The notes: a model not told the origin generated them from the letters alone. Shown: positions 29,976-63,832, counted from the first letter of the stretch. The stretch is DNA of 64,000 nucleotides from an uncultured Actinomycetes bacterium (GCA_937127245.1 CAKZLU010000034.1:12605-76604); one strand, 5' to 3'. A program made the numbers and translations.

Positions 29976-30917
29976 TCAAGCCCTCGGGTGAGTCTTTTCG
30001 TACGTTTTCTTTATATCACTCCTTGAAAGATGCATATAGACCTGGGTGGTTGAAATGCTCTCATGCCCTAAGAGTTCCTGCACGGTCCTCAAGTCAGCGC
30101 CCCTGGAGAGCATATGGGTGGCAAAAGTATGTCTGAGCGTGTGCGGAGAAATGTTCCCCTTGGATGTCAAACCCTGCGACTCCCTCTCCACGATTCGGCG
30201 AACCTGCCTCTGATTGATTGGTTTTCCCTTAACTCCCAGAAAAACGACATCACCCGTGTAACCTGATTTTTTCACGAGAAGCGGTCTTACAACTTCCAAG
30301 TAACAAATAAGCGCATCCTTTGCTTTTTCACCAAAAATTACAACCCTCTCCTTGTTCCCTTTTCCATAAACCCTCATTGTGCACGCGACTAAATCGATGT
30401 CAGAAATTCTTAGCGCGCAGAGTTCACCAACCCTGATGCCTGTTCCGTAGAGAACCTCAATGATGGCGTGGTCCCTGATCTTTACGCCTTCCGCGCAAGC
30501 AGTACTCTCCGCAAAGCGTAAGGCTTCGATTTCGGAAAGAAAGCTTGGCGGTTTTCTGCCTCTAACCCTGAAAGACAGCGTGCTTGCAGGATTCGACTTC
30601 AATATGCCCGCATCGTATAGATAACGGTAGAAACTTTTGATGCTCGCGCACCTGCGGGCGATCGTGGATCGCGAGTGGCCCCTCGTGTCCTCGAACGCGA
30701 GAAAAGCCCTGAGAATCCTGTGGTCAACTTTCGCCAAATCGTCTATTTCCATCCTATCAAGAAAATCGAGGAAGTGCTCAAGGTCGTTTCTGTATGCCAG
30801 AACAGTATTTGGAGAAAGGCCTCTGACTTCCCTTAAATATCCAAGGAAGCTTTTCACGCTGTTTCCGGCAAGAGCTTTCACTGCCAACGCCACCCGCCAG
30901 CTTACGTCAAAATCCAC
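29976..30917 (-). CDS. xerC: Tyrosine recombinase XerC/XerD
   Basis: SAM-like N-domain (SPNTVLAYRNDL), GIRVGEL, GKGNKER, HTLRHTFATH, LGH..TTQVY; housekeeping context. Confidence 0.88.
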   Translation of the reverse strand: MDFDVSWRVALAVKALAGNSVKSFLGYLREVRGLSPNTVLAYRNDLEHFLDFLDRMEIDDLAKVDHRILRAFLAFEDTRGHSRSTIARRCASIKSFYRYLYDAGILKSNPASTLSFRVRGRKPPSFLSEIEALRFAESTACAEGVKIRDHAIIEVLYGTGIRVGELCALRISDIDLVACTMRVYGKGNKERVVIFGEKAKDALICYLEVVRPLLVKKSGYTGDVVFLGVKGKPINQRQVRRIVERESQGLTSKGNISPHTLRHTFATHMLSRGADLRTVQELLGHESISTTQVYMHLSRSDIKKTYEKTHPRA

Positions 30918-31049
30918 CTTAATCCCATAAATCCCATAGTTTAATATACTACTTTTTTCGAATCTTTCCCTTGATTTAATACGAGAGTCCGTATCTATGG
31001 ATAAGTTTGCGCGCGTAGTTCTTCAGACCAACACGTAAGAAACTTAAAC

Positions 31050-31247
31050 CTTGTTTTCGGGCAACCCTTCATGACATTTGGCGAAAAGAATTTCTGCCAA
31101 ACAAATATGCCTCTAATGATGTCCGTCCCTAACCCTTAGCCATCAGACAAAAGGCAGTCACGCGGCTCTTTGTTATTCAGTGCAAGAGCAGAAAGATACC
31201 TATGATAGGGGCATCCAAAAGACTATTCCCAGTTGCCTGAAAACAAG
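31050..31247 (+). ncRNA. Putative structured RNA (about 200 nt) abutting the repeat array
   Basis: CTTGTTTTCGGGCAAC (31050-31065) pairs with GTTGCCTGAAAACAAG (31232-31247): 16 bp with one G-U on the + strand; four internal hairpins. Confidence 0.5.
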
Positions 31248-31997
31248 CGCCCCATGCGGGGATTAAATAAGATTTCCCTCCTATTGTTTATCTGAAATAT
31301 CAGTCAAGCGCCAGACTGGGACAATATCCGTTTTTCCATATGAGCAAAGCGCGAAAAGGCAAGCGCCCTTTAGGCGGGGATAAAATGTTCCGATAAGCAG
31401 CGACAGCATTTAGACTGACGCGACCGCCCCCGCACGCGGGGACAAGAGGGTCAGCGGCGGGATTAACCCCTCCACGTTACCATCCGACCCCCATGCGCGG
31501 AGACAAAATGCGGCGCATTAGAAGAGGCGGAATGATGGTTGTCGAGCGCCCCGCACGCTGGGGGAAAAGAATTCCGTCTTTTGTTCCCTTGATAAGCCCT
31601 TTTACCAAGCGGCTCGGCATTCGGGGACGAAATGTTTCGTTGAAGTGATTCATCTTGGCATGAACACAACCGCACCCGCACATGTGGATAAAATGTAGTG
31701 GGGGGTCTTTCCCTCGGAGTGCTAAAGCAACCGCCCCCGCAAGAGGGGATAAAATGAAAAGTCTTCATATTAGACGAGCCAAAAGGGCAAGATCCCCAGG
31801 ATGAGAAACAAAAAGCGGGCAACGTTGTGCGGTTGTTCGCGATTAACCAAGCGCACCCGCACGCGGGGACGAAACAATATTCCCCTTCAGGAGAAGTTGG
31901 ATCCCCACATGTGCCACCACCCACTGGGACGAAGCGCTTTCCGACATCGTGGTTAAACTTTTGAGGACCCAGTTAGACCATCCGGGGGGAAGAAACT
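31244..31997 (+). CRISPR. Degenerate orphan CRISPR-like array, about 13 repeats and 12 spacers; consensus about CAASCGCCCCCGCACGCGGGGAYRAAATG
   Basis: Repeat starts at 31244, 31305, 31360, 31421, 31481, 31543, 31606, 31667, 31728, 31788, 31848, 31908, 31969; unique 31-35-nt spacers; CCCCG/CGGGG hairpin. Strand is inferred, not proven. Confidence 0.75.
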
Positions 31998-32130: not shown

Positions 32131-32850
32131 GTGATTACAAGAAAACACAGGAAAATGAGGTTCGATCCAATATATGACGGCGACTTTAAAGAGGCAGTCC
32201 GCTCAAGCCTTCCAAAACACCACTTTATACGCGAATATATCACCGGCGCCCATGTCCTGGATGTCGGGTGTTGGATCGGGGGCTTCGAATATCATCTGGT
32301 GGGTTCCGCAGCGTCAGTCACCGGCATCGACATAGAGCCCCGCGCCCTGGATGTGGCGGCAAAAAATTTACCTCAGGCGAGATTCATAGAGGCTTCCGTT
32401 CTCGATATGCCTTTTGAGCCCGAGACGTTCGACGTCGTGACCTGCTGGGATGTAATCGAACATCTTCCCCCGAAAACTGAGAGAATCGCCATGAGCGAAA
32501 TGGCGCGTGTGCTGAAAAAAGGCGGCATTTTTTCGCTTTCCACCCCGAGCGGTAAGACTCTCTCCAAAATATTGGACCCCGCTTATTTTTTGACCGGTCA
32601 CAGACATTACAGCCACAACGAAATTGTCAATTTGGTTTGGCAATCCGGGCTAAAAGTAAAAGAAATAAAAATACTTGGAGGATGGTACGTTGTCGCCGAT
32701 TACATGCTGATGTACCTATATAAATATTTACTTCGCTCAAATAAGCCCCTCTGGAAAGCATTTTCCCATCGAGTATTCGAGGATGCGCAACGGGAAGGCT
32801 TCGTGACTTTATTCTTGGTTGCGGAAAAACAAGGAAATGCGAACTGGTAA
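32131..32850 (+). CDS. Class I SAM-dependent methyltransferase (start may be ATG at 32155)
   Basis: VLDVGC, GIDI, FDVV..DVIEHL, RVLKKGG..STP. Confidence 0.88.
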   Translation: MITRKHRKMRFDPIYDGDFKEAVRSSLPKHHFIREYITGAHVLDVGCWIGGFEYHLVGSAASVTGIDIEPRALDVAAKNLPQARFIEASVLDMPFEPETFDVVTCWDVIEHLPPKTERIAMSEMARVLKKGGIFSLSTPSGKTLSKILDPAYFLTGHRHYSHNEIVNLVWQSGLKVKEIKILGGWYVVADYMLMYLYKYLLRSNKPLWKAFSHRVFEDAQREGFVTLFLVAEKQGNANW

Positions 32851-33017: not shown

Positions 33018-34295
33018 ATGCGAGAGACCGAAATTAATTACGAGTTTCTTTTCCGTGAAGCGGAGAACCGCGCCGGTAGGCTTGCCTCAATACTCTCAGA
33101 CTTGATAAAGATTGATACGAGCATCCCGCCCGGAAAGAACTACGAACTCATGGCTGACTTTTTGGAACCACATCTTGAGAAAGCCGGTTTTAAGTGTGAA
33201 AGGGTCATAGTGCCTGAAGAAAGGTGGAAGAAGATCCCGCTTCCCCTCGAGGGACCCAGGGTAAATCTCGTCGGAAAGATTAGAAAAGGCAAAAGACCCT
33301 TGAGCATATACGCCCACATGGACGTGGTCCCGGCGGGAACCGGATGGACAGTCCCCCCGTTTGAGGGAATTATCAAGGATGGCAAAGTTTACGGTAGAGG
33401 GGCTGTCGATATGAAAGGCTCGATCCCTCCGGTCATCGTGGCAACAGAGATTCTCCGTGATCTGGAAATAGAACCTGATTTCGACGTGACGTTTTGCCTG
33501 TGCACCGACGAGGAGATAGGCATTGACCCTGGCGCAGCATATCTCGCGGAGCTCGGATACTTCACCCCTCCAATCATCCACCTTGAAGGAGGCGGACAGG
33601 GACCCGCCATGGTCGCGGCTAACTCGGGCGTTCTACACGCCGTTATCAAGGTTGTCGGAAAAGAAGCACATTCCGGCTTGAGTTTCACTGGAATAAACGC
33701 TCTGGAGGAAGCGGTCGGAGTCCTCGTGGAACTCAAGCGCCTTAAGGAGGTGGTTGAATCCCGCGAATCGTCATATCCTGCCCTTCCTATACCGAAAACC
33801 CCATCCGACAAGCTAACGCCTACTTTCAACATTAACATTTTAAAGGCAGGCGAAAAACTAAACGTCATACCCGGAATCGCCACCATCGAAATAGACAGAC
33901 GATTTCTTCCCGAAGAAGACCTTAAAGACGTGAAGGGCGAGATCATCGACGCGATCGAGCGCGCAAGGCGTTCATCGCGAGCGGTCTCCATCGATGTTGA
34001 GTTTGAGGTGCTTTATCAGAACCATGAAATCGACGTCACCTCCGGGCACGTGGAAAGATGGTGTCAAGGAGTCAGGCTCGCCCTGGGATATCCGCCTGAC
34101 ACGCCATTTTTGTTTGTCGGCTCAAACGGCGCGACTGACATGAGCTTCGTTGGGAAAATCTTGAGAACCAGGGAGTTTGTGGGAACGGGAGTGATTGACG
34201 CGGAGCACATCGCCGCACACGGTCCAGATGAGTGCGTGCCAATCGCAAATATGGTGAACCTCTGCAAGGAGCTCATCTATTTTTTGGTTAGGTGA
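33018..34295 (+). CDS. M20 family metallopeptidase/deacylase (ArgE/DapE-like)
   Basis: AHMDVVP, YGRGAVDMKG, DEEIG, GKEAHS, DRR, AHGPDE. Confidence 0.9.
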   Translation: MRETEINYEFLFREAENRAGRLASILSDLIKIDTSIPPGKNYELMADFLEPHLEKAGFKCERVIVPEERWKKIPLPLEGPRVNLVGKIRKGKRPLSIYAHMDVVPAGTGWTVPPFEGIIKDGKVYGRGAVDMKGSIPPVIVATEILRDLEIEPDFDVTFCLCTDEEIGIDPGAAYLAELGYFTPPIIHLEGGGQGPAMVAANSGVLHAVIKVVGKEAHSGLSFTGINALEEAVGVLVELKRLKEVVESRESSYPALPIPKTPSDKLTPTFNINILKAGEKLNVIPGIATIEIDRRFLPEEDLKDVKGEIIDAIERARRSSRAVSIDVEFEVLYQNHEIDVTSGHVERWCQGVRLALGYPPDTPFLFVGSNGATDMSFVGKILRTREFVGTGVIDAEHIAAHGPDECVPIANMVNLCKELIYFLVR

Positions 34296-34426: not shown

Positions 34427-35539
34427 CTATATTCTCGCGAAGTACGCACCGGCGCCGCTTCTAATTACAACTCCCTTGACCTCTAGTTGGGAAAGTATTG
34501 AAAGAACAAGCCTGCTCTCGATAGAGCTTACACTTGATATCTCCTCCGGATACATATATCCCGCTTTTATGGCCTCCACAACCATCAACTCTTTCTCAGA
34601 AAGTGAAGAAATTTTCGTTGCCAGACCGACCGTCCCTTGCAGGTTAACCCAGTTTGGTGAAAAGCCCACCCCTTCAAGGACATCTTCAGTGCAGGTGACG
34701 GGAACTGCCCCGCTTTTTATCATGAGGTTTGTACCCGCACTCTTCGGGGAGAAAATAGGTCCGGGAACCGCAAAAACCTCTCTGTTCTCGGAAAGAGCGA
34801 ACTCCGCGGTGATTAGCGCCCCGCTAGTTTTCCCCGCTTCAACAACCACGACGCCCGTACACATTCCCGCGATGATCCTGTTGCGCTCAGGAAATCTGAA
34901 TTTCTCGGGTTTCGTTCCCGGAGGATATTCGGATATCAAACATCCTCTTTTAGATATATCAGCAAGCAATAAACGATTCACCGGCGGATAAACGACATCA
35001 ACTCCACAGCCGAGAACCGCGACGGTAAACCCCCTCGATTCGAGCGCACCCGCGTGCGCTGCGGAATCAATCCCCAAAGCGGCACCGCTTACAACGCAAA
35101 TCCCAGCCCCTGCAAGCTCCCTTCCCAGTTTCCTTGAAACCTCCATTCCATAAGGCGTTGGATTCCTTGAGCCAACAACCGCAATGCAAATGCTGTCAGA
35201 AGCGGGCAATGTGCCACGGAAAAACAAAATGAGCGGGGGATCAGTCAATTCGGAGAGGAGCTTAGGGTATGAATCTTCACCGAGGACCACAGCGCCAATT
35301 CCCTTCGATTTCAGAGCGCTCAGAGAATCCCCAGAGCGGTATTTCCTGGCAGCATTCAACCATTCGCTCAGATTTTGGGAAAAAGCACTGGGAACCCTAC
35401 ACTTTGATATCGCCTCAATTACCCCCGCAGGCGTTCCAAACATGGAGATTAGATTCAAAGCGGTTCTCCTGGTCATTTTAGGCAGGGAAATCACGAAAAT
35501 GAGTTCGTCTTTTTCCTCGAGAAATGAGTGCAGTATCAC
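34427..35539 (-). CDS. dprA: DNA-processing protein DprA
   Basis: YPKLL..DPP, AVVGSR, VVSGAALGID, FPERNRIIAG, SGALITA, VFAVPG; C-terminal winged helix. Confidence 0.96.
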   Translation of the reverse strand: MILHSFLEEKDELIFVISLPKMTRRTALNLISMFGTPAGVIEAISKCRVPSAFSQNLSEWLNAARKYRSGDSLSALKSKGIGAVVLGEDSYPKLLSELTDPPLILFFRGTLPASDSICIAVVGSRNPTPYGMEVSRKLGRELAGAGICVVSGAALGIDSAAHAGALESRGFTVAVLGCGVDVVYPPVNRLLLADISKRGCLISEYPPGTKPEKFRFPERNRIIAGMCTGVVVVEAGKTSGALITAEFALSENREVFAVPGPIFSPKSAGTNLMIKSGAVPVTCTEDVLEGVGFSPNWVNLQGTVGLATKISSLSEKELMVVEAIKAGYMYPEEISSVSSIESRLVLSILSQLEVKGVVIRSGAGAYFARI

Positions 35540-56745: not shown

Positions 56746-59211
56746 TTGAACACCTATCCGAGCTTCGAAGAGTTTTTCGAGACGGGAAGCGCCAATAAAC
56801 CTTTTCCCTATCAAAAAAGACTTGCAGAAATGAAAAAACCGCCATCTCTCATACGAATACCCACCGGGAGTGGAAAAACTCTCGCCGCTGTCGCTTCCTG
56901 GTTGTGGCGCCACCTCTCAAGCGACAATAATTCCAGTTTGTCCACGCCGAGAAAACTCGTCTACTGCCTTCCAATGCGCGTTTTGGTCAACCAAACGTTC
57001 CAAGAAATATACGATTTCTTAGACAGGCTTAAACTGATCGAGGAGTTCCCCGTCTATAAACTCATCGGCGGTGAAATCAACGAGGAGTGGTTGCTTTATC
57101 CAGAAAGAAAGTGTGTCATTGTCGGAACCCAGGATATGCTGTTGTCAAGGGCATTGAATCGCGGCTACTCCCAGAGCAGATTCGCGTGGCCAAGGTCGTT
57201 CGGTCTTCTTAATAATGACTGTCAGTGGATCTTCGATGAGGTCCAGTTAATGAGCACCAGTATTTCCACTTCAGCCCAGCTTCACGGTTTCAGAGATTAT
57301 TTCGGCACAGTTTTGCCGTGCCAGAGCACCTGGATGAGCGCGACTCTGAGCGAACAATGGCTCCAATCGCCGGATTTCAGCCTGGAAGAAAATGAAATGT
57401 TCGTTCTCGACAGTGACGACTTAGCGGTACCTCAACTGGAAAAGCGAGTTTTCGCCAGGAAAAAAATCGAAAAGTTCGGTCTGGAAGGCGATGCCAAAAA
57501 TAGAGACAAAGAGCTCGCCTCATTCGTGCTCGACAACCACGTGCCTGGCAAGCAGACTCTCGTAGTGTTAAACACCGTGAAAAGGGCAACCTCCCTTTAC
57601 GAGGAAATAAAGAAAGCGCAACGTAAAAGAAACGGCGACAGTGCACCTGAGTTGATGCTCATTCATTCACGCTTCCGACCATACGAAAGAATGGCACTGG
57701 AGAAAAGAATTGCCCAAAAAAGCCTGCCCCCGGAGGGACGAATCATTGTTTCAACCCAGGTGGTCGAAGCAGGGGTAAACATCACCTCTTCGCTCCTTGT
57801 GACTGAGCTTGCCCCCTGGTCATCGATAGTTCAACGGCTGGGAAGAAACAACCGGTTCGGTGAAGAAATCAGTTCGCAAGCCTGCTGGATTGATCTTGAA
57901 GAAAAAGATTATCCCCCCTACAACCAATCAGAAATGGACGCGACAAGGGAAATTATGGAAAGCATGACCGGGCGGGAGATTACCCCCCATTCACTTATCG
58001 ACAAACGGCTTTCGGTTGAATCACAGCAAGTGTACTTCGTTCCGCGAAAAAAGGATTTATTTGAACTTTTCGACACCACGCCTGACCTATTCGGCTTCGA
58101 CACTGACGTTTCCCGCTTCATACGGGAGGGAGATTTCCTCGATGCCTACGTTTTCTGGAGAGATTTCGAGGAAAACCCTCCCGAGGACCGACTATATCTC
58201 AGGGAAGAACTCTGCCCTGTTCCTTACAACGAGGTTCGAGAGCAGATGAGTAAAAGTAAAGATGCCCGCACGGTTTGGTACTTTGACCACATCGACGGCA
58301 GGTGGCGGAGAGCATCCGCAGACAATGTATTCCCCGGTGCAGTGTTGATGCTCAAAGCGAAAGATGGAGGTTACTCTAAAGAAAAAGGTTGGGACCCAGC
58401 ATCCAAATCGGCTGTTGAAGTGATTACCGGGGAAATACTAACAGAGCCCTCCGAGGAAATACTCGAATCCGAAGAAAGCGACGACCTGTCACACCTCGAA
58501 TACGCCCGGTGGGTCTCGCTTGAAGACCACGCCAGCGATGTAGAAAGTGAGATCGAAGAAATCCTAAAGGCGCTTGAGTGGGACGCATTAAGCTGGGAAA
58601 ACAAAACGCATGCGCGCACCGTTTTAAAATACGCCGCGCTCTTGCACGATATCGGAAAAAGCAGCCAGATTTTCCAGGAAGCTCTGGTGAACGCGTGTGA
58701 CCCCAAACCACCAGAAACAACTACACTCTGGGCTAAGGGTCCCGGCAAAGGTCGGCTATCATACCGAAGGAAATATTTCAGGCACGAACTTGCCAGCACC
58801 CTGAGAATCTTAAGCGATGCAAACCCCGGCTTTTTGCCGGAGTTTACAGACGAAGAATTGAGTCTTCTCGCTTATCTAATCGCCGCTCATCACGGAAAAG
58901 TTCGAACAGCGATCTCTCCCATGCCATCAGAGATGCCTCCAGGTGACGAAAGGAGGTACGCTCTCGGGCTAATTGAGGGTGATGAGCTTCCGGAGATAGT
59001 GATAGGCTCCATGAGGATACCTTCAATTCCATTAAGCCTTGGATGCATGGAAATGGGAAATTCAGGCACTCGCTCATGGAGTGAAAGGGTTCTCACACTC
59101 TGTCACTCAAAGGAATATGGACCGTTCAGGCTTGCCTATTTTGAAGCTCTCGTAAGGGCGGCAGACATCAGAGCATCAATTAAGGAGAGGGGGGAACTCA
59201 ATGAGCGATAA
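56746..59211 (+). CDS. cas3: Type I-G Cas3 (N-terminal SF2 helicase, C-terminal HD nuclease)
   Basis: PTGSGKT, DEVQ, MSAT, HSRF, STQVVEAG, QRLGR; C-terminal H..LHDIGK..RHE..HHG..AD; TTG follows AGGAGG. Confidence 0.95.
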   Translation: MNTYPSFEEFFETGSANKPFPYQKRLAEMKKPPSLIRIPTGSGKTLAAVASWLWRHLSSDNNSSLSTPRKLVYCLPMRVLVNQTFQEIYDFLDRLKLIEEFPVYKLIGGEINEEWLLYPERKCVIVGTQDMLLSRALNRGYSQSRFAWPRSFGLLNNDCQWIFDEVQLMSTSISTSAQLHGFRDYFGTVLPCQSTWMSATLSEQWLQSPDFSLEENEMFVLDSDDLAVPQLEKRVFARKKIEKFGLEGDAKNRDKELASFVLDNHVPGKQTLVVLNTVKRATSLYEEIKKAQRKRNGDSAPELMLIHSRFRPYERMALEKRIAQKSLPPEGRIIVSTQVVEAGVNITSSLLVTELAPWSSIVQRLGRNNRFGEEISSQACWIDLEEKDYPPYNQSEMDATREIMESMTGREITPHSLIDKRLSVESQQVYFVPRKKDLFELFDTTPDLFGFDTDVSRFIREGDFLDAYVFWRDFEENPPEDRLYLREELCPVPYNEVREQMSKSKDARTVWYFDHIDGRWRRASADNVFPGAVLMLKAKDGGYSKEKGWDPASKSAVEVITGEILTEPSEEILESEESDDLSHLEYARWVSLEDHASDVESEIEEILKALEWDALSWENKTHARTVLKYAALLHDIGKSSQIFQEALVNACDPKPPETTTLWAKGPGKGRLSYRRKYFRHELASTLRILSDANPGFLPEFTDEELSLLAYLIAAHHGKVRTAISPMPSEMPPGDERRYALGLIEGDELPEIVIGSMRIPSIPLSLGCMEMGNSGTRSWSERVLTLCHSKEYGPFRLAYFEALVRAADIRASIKERGELNER

Positions 59212-61366
59212 CGTGATAACTCTTACCGGGTGCAAAACGACACCCCTTGTGAATTATCTCAAAGCTCTTGCAGTCTTCAGAATAACATCCATCCAAAAAG
59301 ACCCTTCTGTTCGCTGCTTCTGGCAGGACGATTTTCTGAACATGATTGCTCCTTTCACCATTGACAATCTCATTGACTTCTTTCTTGAGGAATACAAACC
59401 CGCCCCAATAATAGCCCCCTGGAACAGCAGCGCAGGATTTTCTCCGCCAGACGAAAAGGAGGGAGAGTATCTCAGATTCATAAAAAGCCAAACCTCTTTA
59501 GAGAGGCTTAAAGATTACAGAGAGATAATTCTCATCGCGGAAAAAGCGATAAGACACCTCGAAATCACCGATAGCAAGAGCCTAAAGGAGAATAAAAACG
59601 CCCTGTGCGCCCTTTTGAGAAAGACTCTTCCCGACAGCGCCATTCCCTGGCTTGATGCCACCATCATAATTACCTCAACGGAGAAAGGGAAACCGGATTT
59701 GAACTACCCTCCGCTTCTGGGAACCGGGGCAAATGACGGCCGGCTGGATTTTACCGTAAATTTCATGAAAAACTTAAAAGAAATCCTCACTAACCTGAAT
59801 ACCTCTAAATCCCGTGCATGGCTGAAAGACGCGCTCTTGGGCTTAAACGAAAGCCAGGGAATCAATAATCCATCAGGATTTTTCTCGTTATCTGCCGCCG
59901 GAGGCCCGAATACCGACCAAGGATTCGAAGGGGAAAGCGTTCTGAACCCCTGGGATTTCATATTGATGATTGAGGGAACCATCCTTTTTGCGGGTTCAGT
60001 CTCCCGGCGCTTTTCAGTAACCGAAGCGCAAGGAAAAGCTGCTTTTCCCTTCACCGTGAATCCTTCCGCCGTTGGCTTCAATTCTTATGCGGCAAAAGAA
60101 GAGAGCACTTCTCGTTCTCGAGGAGAGCTCTGGGTTCCCGTTTGGAAAAACCCTGTTTCGCTTGTCGAACTTGAGAACCTCTATGGGGAAGGAAGGGCAA
60201 GGCTCGGCAGAAGACTTGCGCGCAACGGACTTGATTTTGCAAGGTCTATAGCTTCTCTCGGTACCGCACGTGGCGTGGACTCATTCATTCGCTACAGCTT
60301 CTTGAAACGCCGGGGCGATTCTCACATCGCCGTTCCGCTGAGAACTTACAAGACCCGAAAAATCCCCTTGGAGGGAGTGAACCTAATTGACCAAATAGAC
60401 AATTGGATTATAAGCGCTGAACGCGCCGTTTCTGGCGCAAAGACGGTTCCCCACAGTATCGTCTCATCACTTTATGCCCTCAAAGAATCGATCCACTCTT
60501 ATACAGTGCACGGCCAGAAGCGTGATTTCCAAAAAATAGTGGTCAACCTTGGCAAGCTCGAGCGCGCAATTGCCTCCTCAAAGACGATTAAATCCACTTA
60601 CAACATAAGACCGCTTTTTCTTAGGGATGTCGGGTGGATCAAGATGTGCGATGACGGTAGCCATGAGTTTCGGATAGCTGCTTCGGTTGTCTCCATTCAG
60701 CCAGCCGAAGAAAAAATTGGACCGTTAAGAGCCAACCTGGAACCGGTAACCGTTGTAAAGGATTTTGCCGAATGGGAGGAAAACAGCAAACAGGTTGTTC
60801 CGGTGAGCAATGATGTTTACAGGACACTCATATCCATTCTCGAGAGGAGAATCATAGAGGCATTGAAACATGAGCTTGAGTTCATACCGATAGCCGGAAC
60901 GCTTCACTGCTCTGCGCATGAGATTAAACTTTTCCTTGATGGCAGACTTGACGGCGAGAAAATCCTCTCATTAATCCTCGGTTTATCACTGATCCACCAC
61001 AGGATATTCGCATATTATCGCGACGGTCGTAAGAACGGCGAAAGTGAGCCAAGAATTCCACGGGATTACATTGTTTTGAAAACGCAGTTTCTTCCATCCT
61101 CTCTGTCTGTAAACAACGAGAACATAAGTTTCCCTTATGACCTAACCTTGTTCTCCCTCCTGTCTGCGGGCAGAGTTAAAGAGGCATGCAAAAAGGCAAC
61201 CCAAAGGCTGCGAAACGCGGGCTTTCTACCGTTGAGTGCATTTGGCGTATCGGGATGCGACCCTCATCGTTTACTGGCTTCGATGATCATACCTATACAA
61301 ACAGAAAAGTTCGCCATGGAGCTTCTTCCCATGGCGGTAAACAAAGGCAGTAAGTTCAAAGTTTAG
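59201..61366 (+). CDS. csx17: Type I-G large subunit Cas8g2/Csx17
   Basis: YLKAL, PIIAPWN, PLLGTGANDGRLDF..NFM, NPWDFILMIEG, ELWVPVW, EGRA; follows cas3. Confidence 0.9.
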   Translation: MSDNVITLTGCKTTPLVNYLKALAVFRITSIQKDPSVRCFWQDDFLNMIAPFTIDNLIDFFLEEYKPAPIIAPWNSSAGFSPPDEKEGEYLRFIKSQTSLERLKDYREIILIAEKAIRHLEITDSKSLKENKNALCALLRKTLPDSAIPWLDATIIITSTEKGKPDLNYPPLLGTGANDGRLDFTVNFMKNLKEILTNLNTSKSRAWLKDALLGLNESQGINNPSGFFSLSAAGGPNTDQGFEGESVLNPWDFILMIEGTILFAGSVSRRFSVTEAQGKAAFPFTVNPSAVGFNSYAAKEESTSRSRGELWVPVWKNPVSLVELENLYGEGRARLGRRLARNGLDFARSIASLGTARGVDSFIRYSFLKRRGDSHIAVPLRTYKTRKIPLEGVNLIDQIDNWIISAERAVSGAKTVPHSIVSSLYALKESIHSYTVHGQKRDFQKIVVNLGKLERAIASSKTIKSTYNIRPLFLRDVGWIKMCDDGSHEFRIAASVVSIQPAEEKIGPLRANLEPVTVVKDFAEWEENSKQVVPVSNDVYRTLISILERRIIEALKHELEFIPIAGTLHCSAHEIKLFLDGRLDGEKILSLILGLSLIHHRIFAYYRDGRKNGESEPRIPRDYIVLKTQFLPSSLSVNNENISFPYDLTLFSLLSAGRVKEACKKATQRLRNAGFLPLSAFGVSGCDPHRLLASMIIPIQTEKFAMELLPMAVNKGSKFKV

Positions 61367-61369
61367 GAG

Positions 61370-62314
61370 GTGTTGGAGATGTATGCTGACATTGATCAAG
61401 CGTTAAGTGTCCCAACTCTAAGGTTTGAGGTGGAACTTGAGCCAGCTCAAGGAACGCGGTTTCAACCAACGAACTTTCCAGACCTCGGGCCTGCCACATA
61501 CTCACGACCCGACGGCACGGAAATGCTCCTCGTGGAATCACCGCAAAGCATGGCAAATCGCCTCGAAGAAGTATGCTGGAACCACGAACGCGCGGACCTG
61601 CATGATGTCCTTACCGGGCTTCCCTACGTTCGCATCAATCTCGGAAACGGGCTGTTCACAAACTCAATACTCGAGGCGCACAGATTGAACTCACCATATA
61701 TCCTTGAGTCAAGCGACAAGACCTTTATGACTGCGTTGATACAGGAATTTAAAGAGTTTGAGATGTCTCCGGTGGATGTTCGAAAAGTCGCCAGAGTGGT
61801 TTTCAAATACGACCCGAACTCAGTGCTTCACGGGGTCTTCTTCGCGAAAAGCGACCTTGCCGGGGGAAGAATCAGGCTAACCCGCGCTTTATCCTCTTTC
61901 ATCGAAGCTGAAGGCGTGAATGTCGCGGAAAGCGGAGGCGTTAAGATGGATGTTGTAAACCCGCGGGGTGATACTTCCAAGGGATTCGGACATGTACCAT
62001 TCCACAGAACTGAGTTTACGGCATCCAGAATTACCGCATACTTCAGCCTTGACAACGCTTTGATTAAAGGGTACTCACTTGGCGAGACTGCGGAAAAGCT
62101 TTTGTGTGCGCTTGCGCTGTGGAAAGTGAGAAAGTTTCTCGACTCCGGTCTGAGGCTCAGAACAAGCTGCGATTTCCAGGTAAAAGACAGGGAAAAGATC
62201 GAGATCCCCGAACTCCGCTACCTTGAGGAAATACTGCCCGGTTTGATCAAGAAATGTGCGGAAGAAGGACTGTTTGCTATGCCACCTGTCACAGAGGTGC
62301 AGTGGAAACAATAG
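61370..62314 (+). CDS. csb1: Type I-G backbone Cas7g/Csb1
   Basis: RFQPTNFPDLG, LVESPQSMANRLE, EAHRL, DPNSVLHG, LRLRTSC. Confidence 0.92.
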   Translation: MLEMYADIDQALSVPTLRFEVELEPAQGTRFQPTNFPDLGPATYSRPDGTEMLLVESPQSMANRLEEVCWNHERADLHDVLTGLPYVRINLGNGLFTNSILEAHRLNSPYILESSDKTFMTALIQEFKEFEMSPVDVRKVARVVFKYDPNSVLHGVFFAKSDLAGGRIRLTRALSSFIEAEGVNVAESGGVKMDVVNPRGDTSKGFGHVPFHRTEFTASRITAYFSLDNALIKGYSLGETAEKLLCALALWKVRKFLDSGLRLRTSCDFQVKDREKIEIPELRYLEEILPGLIKKCAEEGLFAMPPVTEVQWKQ

Positions 62315-62323
62315 GGGGTAGCG

Positions 62324-63832
62324 ATGCTTGCGATCAAATTTATCTTCACGGGGGGAAAATACCACGCTACTCCATGGGACAGGCACGCTAATGAAGGAGT
62401 TTGGGAGTGGCCTCCTTCGCCATGGAGAATTCTTCGCGCTTTAATGGCTGTCTGGAAGACAAAGTGCGCAAACCAAAACGTTGACGAAGAGACCGTACAT
62501 TCACTCCTGAACAAGCTTGCGCACCCGCCCACGTATCATCTTCCACCAGCGGTCGCATCCCACACTCGCCATTTCATGCCCTGGAACAAGAGCTGGAAAA
62601 AGGCGCGCGAATCTTCCAGAACACTTGTCCTTGATTCTTTCCTCTCGCTGGAACCAACTGATCCGATGTGGGTGATCTGGGAAAACGTTGTTCTGGACAA
62701 CGATGAAAAAGAAACGCTTAGCGCATTGCTTTCCAAAATTAGCTATCTTGGAAGAGCCGAATCGTGGTGTAACGCTTCGACAGCAGATGAACGAAGTCCA
62801 AAACCTAACTGCCTGCCGAGCGAGTTTTCCAACTCTCCAAATAACCTCTCAGGGGAAAACGACCGAGAATTCGTTTATCTTCTCGCCCCTGAACTGCCTT
62901 TAAAAATCGATGCGCTTCTTGTTGAGACAACGAATATGAGAAAAGACGGTCTCTTGCAACCTCGGGGGACAAGATGGTTAAAATACGAAATACAGGATGG
63001 CAAACTCAGCGATAAATTGAGAACTAAACCGTTGATGCCCACCTCGCCACAAAAGCCTGTTCGCCTCGCTGTCTACAGCGTCTCGGGTCCGGTTCTTCCT
63101 CTTGTCACAAAAACGTTAAGTTTTGCAGAATTTTTGAGAAAAGCGGTTCAGTCAATTTACGGAAATCTATCAAACGGCGCTTCTTCCCCCATGTTTTCCG
63201 GCAAAGCTATAAACGGGGAAATGCTCGAAGGCCACAGGCACGCTCACTTCATTCCCTTAGACTGCGACCGCGATTTAAGGATCGACCATATCCTTATTTA
63301 CACGTTTGACCAAGAAGGCTTCTCAGACTTAGAACAGCAAGCTCTCGCACAGCTTAGAAAACTTAAAGGAGCCGTAAGCGGCTACGACATTGACGTGGTT
63401 CTCGTTTTTTTGGGGGAACCGGATAGATTCGGCCACGCAAACCGGATCTGTCCCGTTTTGAGTGAGTGCAAAACATGGGTCTCCGAAACGCCTTTCTTGC
63501 TCGTAAGACACCCGAAGGTCCGTGGAAAACAGCCCGATAAATATTTGGTTGACAGTCCTGAAGACCAGGTTCTACTTGAACTGCAAAGAAGAGGATTCCC
63601 TGAACCTATCGTTGAGGAAATGCTATATCGACCTGGAATTAGAAGAAAAATCAGGTGGCTGGAATTTGAAAGATGGCGGAAAATCAGACCGCCCATCGAC
63701 AGAGGGTTTGGATTTAAACTTGAGTTTCCCACACCGGTAAAGGGACCAATAATTATTGGATATTACTGTCATTACGGTTTGGGGCTTTTCCTTCCTCAGG
63801 AAAGAGATTATCCCTGCTCCCTGTGCTTCTAA
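62324..63832 (+). CDS. csb2: Type I-G Cas5/Cas6 fusion Csb2
   Basis: YHATPW, EWPPSPWRILRAL, YLGRAES, HRHAH, W.SETP, GP..IG..CHYGLGLF. Confidence 0.92.
   Translation: MLAIKFIFTGGKYHATPWDRHANEGVWEWPPSPWRILRALMAVWKTKCANQNVDEETVHSLLNKLAHPPTYHLPPAVASHTRHFMPWNKSWKKARESSRTLVLDSFLSLEPTDPMWVIWENVVLDNDEKETLSALLSKISYLGRAESWCNASTADERSPKPNCLPSEFSNSPNNLSGENDREFVYLLAPELPLKIDALLVETTNMRKDGLLQPRGTRWLKYEIQDGKLSDKLRTKPLMPTSPQKPVRLAVYSVSGPVLPLVTKTLSFAEFLRKAVQSIYGNLSNGASSPMFSGKAINGEMLEGHRHAHFIPLDCDRDLRIDHILIYTFDQEGFSDLEQQALAQLRKLKGAVSGYDIDVVLVFLGEPDRFGHANRICPVLSECKTWVSETPFLLVRHPKVRGKQPDKYLVDSPEDQVLLELQRRGFPEPIVEEMLYRPGIRRKIRWLEFERWRKIRPPIDRGFGFKLEFPTPVKGPIIIGYYCHYGLGLFLPQERDYPCSLCF

Follow-up and report, generated by a model that had tools for sequence, protein, structure and literature searches.

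A heavily eroded type I-E-like CRISPR array with host-gene spacers, a probable relic in an uncultured Actinomycetes bacterium

Can a CRISPR array in which no two repeats are identical still be of use to its host? The question is raised by positions 31244-31997 of the window studied here, a 64-kb stretch of DNA analysed as a whole (C34:12605-76604 of genome G000, an uncultured Actinomycetes bacterium; 2.62 Mb, 51 contigs, 94.85% complete). An earlier reading made from the sequence only (the sequence-only reading) had taken the element for a fixed guide-RNA array, possibly domesticated for regulation. We put the probability at roughly 85% that the array is instead a neutrally decaying relic of a lost type I-E system, and most likely it does nothing today. 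The new observation is that four of the 15 spacers tested appear to trace to the host's own chromosome. The array thus belongs to a known kind, the orphan array with self-targeting spacers left by cas loss, here in an unusually eroded form.

31244-31997, plus strand: degenerate type I-E-like CRISPR array, 13 repeats (~24-29 nt) alternating with unique 31-35-nt spacers

The 13 repeat units lie on the plus strand at spacings of 55-63 nt, with a period of about 61 nt (29+32), and start at 31244, 31305/6, 31360/1, 31421, 31482, 31543, 31606, 31667, 31728, 31788, 31848, 31908 and 31970. All 13 repeats are pairwise distinct, each carrying 3-15 differences from the 29-nt consensus. The majority consensus, CAAGCGCCCCCGCACGCGGGGA(Y)AAAATG, folds into a 5-bp GC hairpin (-9.3 kcal/mol) followed by an 8-nt 3′ tail. 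In a leave-one-out position-weight test, with 126,024 positions of the window as background, 11 of the 13 units fall below a background fraction of 1e-3, five of them at 0. This confirms the 13-unit array without identical repeats that the sequence-only reading had described. The two weaker units, at 31305 (fraction 0.019) and 31788 (0.0046), draw their support mainly from phase, and two flanking units that had been suggested as eroded repeats, at 31183 and 32031, are unsupported at fractions of 0.07 and 0.10. A scan of the whole genome with the 13-unit profile, which had been proposed as a check, placed its nine best matches within the array (9.1-15.2 bits); the strongest match outside reached 8.7 bits (E=12). 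The results also fit the warning that standard finders may miss such an array: Tandem Repeats Finder made no call across it, an 11-mer periodicity scan missed it, and Rfam returned no CRISPR-DR match at the gathering score, the best at E<=10 being CRISPR-DR10 at 15.4 bits against a cut-off of 39.

The spacers provide the most direct evidence on the origin of the array. Fifteen segments, namely the 13 array spacers and the two stretches beside the unsupported flanking units, were compared without gaps to both strands of the whole genome, with the array masked. Four of the 15 stand out, with 26, 25, 28 and 28 matches over 32-33 nt; extension by a single base brings the first of these to 27. Their coordinates, sources and 5′ protospacer flanks, including any protospacer-adjacent motif (PAM), are as follows.

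31388-31420, plus strand: spacer from an MMPL/HAE3-family RND transporter gene; source G000:C11:129171-129203, minus strand; 27/33; 5′ flank GAGAAG (AAG PAM)

31635-31666, plus strand: spacer from uvrC; source G000:C41:57335-57366, plus strand; 25/32; 5′ flank AGTAAG (AAG PAM)

31696-31727, plus strand: spacer from a LivH/UrtB-type ABC permease gene; source G000:C41:103975-104006, plus strand; 28/32; 5′ flank GTGCGG

31937-31969, plus strand: spacer from dnaB; source G000:C32:162906-162938, minus strand; 28/33; 5′ flank TCCCTG

Of 600 shuffled spacers, a single one attained 25 matches and not one attained 26; reversal of the 15 spacers gave at most 23. A gapped search recovered the same four spacers; they scored 20-24, and the best of 300 shuffles scored 19. 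The remaining spacers showed no match above control level anywhere in the genome, the promoter of a resident type I-G cas operon included, in either the ungapped or the gapped search. A fifth candidate, spacer 31329-31359, was rejected, as its 21/24 match on G000:C11:55450-55473 scores 18, a value equalled or exceeded by 12 of 300 shuffles. The self-derived spacers occupy positions 3, 7, 8 and 12 of 13. Two of their protospacers lie 46.6 kb apart on the same contig (C41) and strand; primed acquisition could produce such a pair, which is not significant with four points.

In Escherichia coli, type I-E adaptation selects an AAG PAM, the G of which becomes the last base of the repeat. Here, AAG precedes two of the four protospacers, and a G matching the last repeat base stands immediately before all four. 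These flanks fix both the subtype (I-E) and the reading direction of the array.

The spacers also give a rough date. The only genome of the same genus available for comparison, G001, is distant. It carries orthologues of all four source genes, at 70-92% identity, and each spacer matches the G000 gene better than the G001 orthologue (28 versus 23, 28 versus 19, 27 versus 23, and 25 versus at most 20). Among the other relatives, 23 genomes have a dnaB match, at 24 loci, and the dnaB spacer reaches at most 23/33 there. Protein matches to uvrC of G001, G005 and G004 (L072, L073, L076) and to the MMPL gene of G001 (L078) contain one or two in-frame stops, which may be read-through gene ends or real pseudogenes. 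At fourfold-degenerate sites, dnaB differs between G000 and G001 by 0.64 (113/177), and the spacers differ from their sources by 12-22%. As this is far below the fourfold divergence, uptake would have taken place well after the split from G001, and the spacers appear to have been taken from the chromosome of the array's own lineage or of a very close relative.

No machinery that fits the array was found. The Cas6e, Cas7e and Cse1 families (PF08798, PF09344, PF09481) have no match in the 94.85%-complete genome, and the Cas1 family (PF01867) matches a single gene, the cas4/cas1 fusion of the type I-G system. The type IV Csf2 family (TIGR03115) has no match in G000 or G001, a search that covered this csf family and no other. 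When all 29 open frames of the type I-E locus of a class relative (G025) were used as tblastn queries, the only cas genes recovered were cas3 and cas1 of type I-G. Type I-E is rare in the class, with Cas6e in 1 of 51 genomes (G025). These searches support the earlier description of the array as an orphan, here with respect to its own subtype. The accompanying statement that no cas gene is adjacent holds in a narrow sense; a full type I-G operon starts 24.7 kb downstream in the same window.

56746-63832, plus strand: type I-G cas operon (cas3g, cas8g/csx17, cas7g/csb1, csb2), resident and not cognate to the degenerate array

The I-G locus is complete and runs past the end of the window to G000:C34:78776, adding a 558-aa cas4/cas1 fusion, cas2 and an array with a 36-nt repeat, GTATCCACGGATAAATCACCGTGGCCCAATTGAAGC, which is unrelated to the degenerate repeat in both sequence and length. 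This second array breaks the assembly and is split over two contig ends, the other being G000:C19:12104-12213.

The neighbours of the array are:

29976-30917, minus strand: xerC-type tyrosine recombinase, bordering the insertion on the left

30918-31243, plus strand: AT-richer stretch from the xerC start to the first unit; the xerC-proximal part (xerC promoter region) is common to G001

32131-32850, plus strand: class I S-adenosylmethionine-dependent methyltransferase, right neighbour of the array, also missing from the syntenic site of G001

33018-34295, plus strand: M20 peptidase, which only G000 and G001 carry between dprA and xerC

34427-35539, minus strand: dprA, right flank of the locus

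To the right of the array, the gene order is methyltransferase, M20 peptidase, dprA and a comM-like gene. In G001, the joined contigs read dprA, M20 peptidase (82% identical), about 275 bp and xerC, with neither array nor methyltransferase; in G000, these two make up a block of about 1.8 kb that G001 lacks. The join itself rests on an overlap of about 127 nt between the end of G001:C84 and the start of G001:C113 (L036, L030), which gives one locus, dprA-M20 peptidase-xerC-sigma factor-rpsB. All four order-level relatives examined (G002, G003, G004, G006) have comM, dprA and xerC directly adjacent; since only the two same-genus genomes have the M20 peptidase between dprA and xerC, the site has taken up insertions at least twice. 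The methyltransferase was discarded as a synteny anchor, having many paralogues and no orthologue in G001.

Searches for the array elsewhere were negative. None of 40 relatives has DNA matching the array, a 25-nt consensus finds no counterpart in G001 at up to three mismatches, and a 20-nt consensus motif gave two single, unrelated matches among genome contigs (Streptomyces and a Planctomycetota metagenome-assembled genome), with no intact array. The whole array has no match in phage and plasmid collections at a distant blastn setting. A metagenome scan with XerC turned up no close relative, the three loci that it yielded being distant (25-30% identity). Upstream of the first unit, the GC content drops to 0.43-0.45, and the part of 30918-31243 beyond the xerC-proximal portion may be a leader remnant. 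No sigma-70-like site was found on the plus strand; the scan is not tuned to Actinomycetota and is weak evidence either way. Protein coding across the array was rejected, as a 61-nt period is not a multiple of three and the reverse-strand open reading frames over it (153 and 101 aa) belong to no Pfam family; for the 153-aa frame, no homologue was found among proteins of 84-268 residues.

The repeats are 74% identical to their consensus (270/365 cells) and thus 26% diverged. The spacers that can still be recognised agree with their sources at 83% of positions (108/130) and are 17% diverged, a figure biased downward because it is measured on such spacers only. By region, repeat identity is 0.76 in the 5′ flank, 0.76 in the 5′ stem, 0.63 in the loop, 0.82 in the 3′ stem and 0.72 in the handle. 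Added up over the 13 repeats, the hairpin energies come to -72.5 kcal/mol; 2000 simulations in which the consensus was randomly mutated at an equal number of sites gave -72.4 +/- 10.2. Stem cells are paired in 63.1% of cases versus 64.2 +/- 3.0% in shuffles, a double-sided change occurs in one pair, and the alignment of 13 repeats shows no covariation in the stems. The hairpin and the 3′ handle thus appear not to be preferentially retained, and the conservation of the repeats seems no greater than that of the spacers. Of the 22 mismatches between spacer and gene, 9, 4 and 9 lie at codon positions 1, 2 and 3, and two of the four spacers, read in the frame of the gene, would bring in a stop codon. 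Polarisation with G001 assigns 10 of 15 mismatches in three spacers to the spacer side and two to the gene side, with three ambiguous; the uvrC spacer was left out, its G001 site not being alignable ungapped (40 of 92).

The sequence-only reading had itself named neutral decay of repeats and spacers, together with absence in close relatives and no transcription or processing, as the marks of a dead relic of a lost I-E system. Such decay is the pattern found, since the repeats are no better conserved than the spacers and the hairpin is not maintained, and the closest relative lacks the array. Part of that reading is upheld, namely a CRISPR-derived array of I-E-like geometry that is orphan with respect to its own subtype and has stopped acquiring spacers; the AAG flanks and the terminal G now back the I-E assignment. 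Its proposal of a fixed, domesticated guide-RNA array finds no support, as the array is absent from G001, repeats and spacers decay alike, and no I-E or type IV effector gene was found. Of the checks that it proposed, persistence at the xerC-dprA locus failed in G001, where the spacers are missing along with the array, and the comparison of the spacers with host, phage and plasmid sequence gave the four host matches, with no phage or plasmid match for the array.

E. coli K-12 has the canonical type I-E repeat and AAG PAM. The array of G000 resembles the canonical systems of E. coli K-12 and G025 in its repeat length of 29 nt, its 32-33-nt spacers, the AAG flank and the terminal G; at the level of the consensus, it may also share their GC hairpin and 8-nt 3′ tail. 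The I-E repeat of G025, GATGTCCCCACGCGCGTGGGGGTGAACCG, is likewise 29 nt long with the same layout. In contrast to these systems, the array of G000 has no identical repeats, no I-E cas3, cse1, cse2, cas7, cas5, cas6e, cas1 or cas2, and apparently no promoter-bearing leader. It keeps the geometry and the PAM rule of the class and appears to have lost the near-identical repeats and the cognate cas genes. With four host-gene spacers, no cognate cas genes found and mutations in every repeat, it fits the self-targeting orphan arrays that remain after cas loss. The closest parallel is Lactobacillus acidophilus NCFM, in which six spacers target the genome and the cas cassette is deleted (Stern et al. 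2010, as described in PMC6990116); the accepted reading for such arrays is autoimmunity or interference loss followed by cas deletion. Both are cas-less arrays in which several spacers match the host chromosome outside mobile elements. They differ in that the present array is far more eroded, with all repeats distinct (26% from consensus) and spacers 12-22% from their sources, that its self matches are visible only to a mismatch-tolerant search, and that an intact I-G system resides in the same genome.

We propose the following course of events. A type I-E system, probably acquired horizontally by the lineage, filled the array by I-E-type adaptation, as indicated by the 32-33-nt spacers, an AAG PAM and a PAM-derived G ending the repeat. 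At least four spacers appear to have been copied from the lineage's own chromosome after the split from the nearest sequenced relative. Because self spacers occur throughout the array and not just at the leader end, interference was presumably already off, or was switched off, while Cas1-Cas2 kept acquiring. The useless or autoimmune I-E module would then have been deleted, leaving the array as neutral DNA between xerC and the methyltransferase gene, with CRISPR immunity now probably supplied by the type I-G system. Repeats and spacers have since drifted at about the same rate. A reading milder than domestication, to which we give somewhat less than an even chance, is that Cas1-Cas2 without interference filled the array largely from the host chromosome, which would make it a fossil of naive self-adaptation.

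Several observations weigh against the decaying-relic reading. About 5% of the genome is missing, and a cas gene could lie there. The equal decay of repeats and spacers is drawn from a spacer divergence that is biased downward. Five units are far more diverged (11-15/29) than the other eight (3-7/29), which uniform decay does not predict; indels within repeats may be the cause. In the LivH-type spacer, three of the four mismatches are synonymous and lie at third codon positions, the pattern expected of a copy of the functional gene of a close relative. Finally, the comparison within the genus covers a single, distant genome, G001.

Other explanations account for parts of these data. That the array is not derived from CRISPR at all, being a chance periodicity or some other intergenic repeat, agrees with its escape from repeat finder and Rfam model, and yet is scarcely credible: besides the significant units and the period that is not a multiple of three, with a 153-aa reverse-strand frame that has neither Pfam family nor homologue, there are 32-33-nt copies of host genes with an AAG or G flank, which only CRISPR adaptation explains, and the 600 shuffles exclude chance protospacer matches for three of the four. 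It is also very unlikely that the array arrived ready-made on a phage or plasmid, aimed at the host chromosome, and was left behind when the element decayed. The rarity of I-E in the class and the block missing from G001 would suit such an origin, but the block neither contains nor adjoins mobile-element genes (its flanks being xerC, methyltransferase and peptidase), the phage and plasmid collections hold no match, and spacers against essential host genes would kill the host of the element. Less easily dismissed, although still unlikely, is a relic whose self spacers came from the chromosome of a related strain or species, through transformation or conjugation for example, so that the host never was a perfect match. 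In haloarchaea, spacers against chromosomal genes of relatives have reportedly been acquired after inter-species mating. The synonymous changes in the LivH-type spacer and the identity to the host of just 78-88% speak for this source, and dprA and comM stand beside the locus, which may be coincidence. Against it, two of four spacers contain in-frame stops and the dnaB, uvrC and MMPL mismatches are mostly non-synonymous, so that much of the divergence must be decay after uptake, leaving a small remainder; this source would moreover require a donor more closely related to G000 than is G001 or any other examined relative. A related strain is a possible source for the LivH-type spacer, and the verdict of a relic would be unchanged either way.

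A working array would be the most consequential alternative. Transcribed as fixed, imperfect guides, it might regulate host genes through an unrecognised effector or the I-G complex, which we regard as very improbable; the specific version in which an eroded but transcribed array tunes dnaB, uvrC, the LivH-type permease and the MMPL transporter through an unrecognised effector or a relaxed I-G complex appears slightly more improbable still. In its favour are the partial complementarity of four spacers to these genes and the small hairpin that many units can still form. Against it, the seed of a type I-E guide lies at the PAM end of the spacer, and counting from that end, three of the four spacers are mismatched at position 2, 6 or 7. 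Relative to their genes, two spacers run sense and two antisense, giving no consistent RNA-targeting logic, and no other spacer, tested against the I-G cas promoter among the rest, has a match above control. Neither I-E nor type IV proteins were found in the genome searches, the I-G repeat resembles that of the array in neither sequence nor length, the hairpin is not retained in excess and shows no covariation, the handle (0.72) has diverged like the rest, and G001 has no array at its syntenic site. Functional cas-less arrays do exist, as illustrated by Listeria RliB, which, according to PMC3886909, is found at one and the same position in every Listeria genome, is expressed and processed by PNPase, and has spacers matching phages. 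The present array is likewise cas-less, and for both another CRISPR-Cas system may exist in trans. The conservation at one locus across related genomes seen for RliB-type arrays is lacking here, given the absence from the nearest relative, and the recognisable spacers match host genes and the trans I-G repeat is unrelated. Degenerate mini-CRISPRs that regulate cas genes or toxins are also known. These CreR/CreA-type elements (10.1101/2023.03.10.532045) consist of one or two units in or beside the cas operon, target its promoter and use the cognate Cascade. They share with the present array degenerate repeats and a 'spacer' partly complementary to host sequence. The present array differs in having 13 units, in the 24.7 kb that separate it from a cas operon that is not cognate, and in matches that lie inside unrelated housekeeping coding regions.

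Were the array transcribed and tuning housekeeping genes after all, it would be a domesticated, fixed regulator derived from CRISPR. As the decaying relic that we consider it to be, it reveals no new mechanism and offers a clean natural example of the death of a CRISPR-Cas system, in which the subtype of the builder (from PAM and geometry), the uptake of host DNA and a rough timing are still legible. The spacer-source pairs form a small neutral clock that reads about 12-22% divergence, compared with 64% for fourfold sites when the two species of the genus are set side by side, and a different subtype, I-G, would meanwhile have taken over immunity in the same genome. Arrays eroded to this degree escape ordinary repeat finders, and their self spacers escape exact-match searches, so that surveys of self-targeting and CRISPR turnover may undercount such relics.

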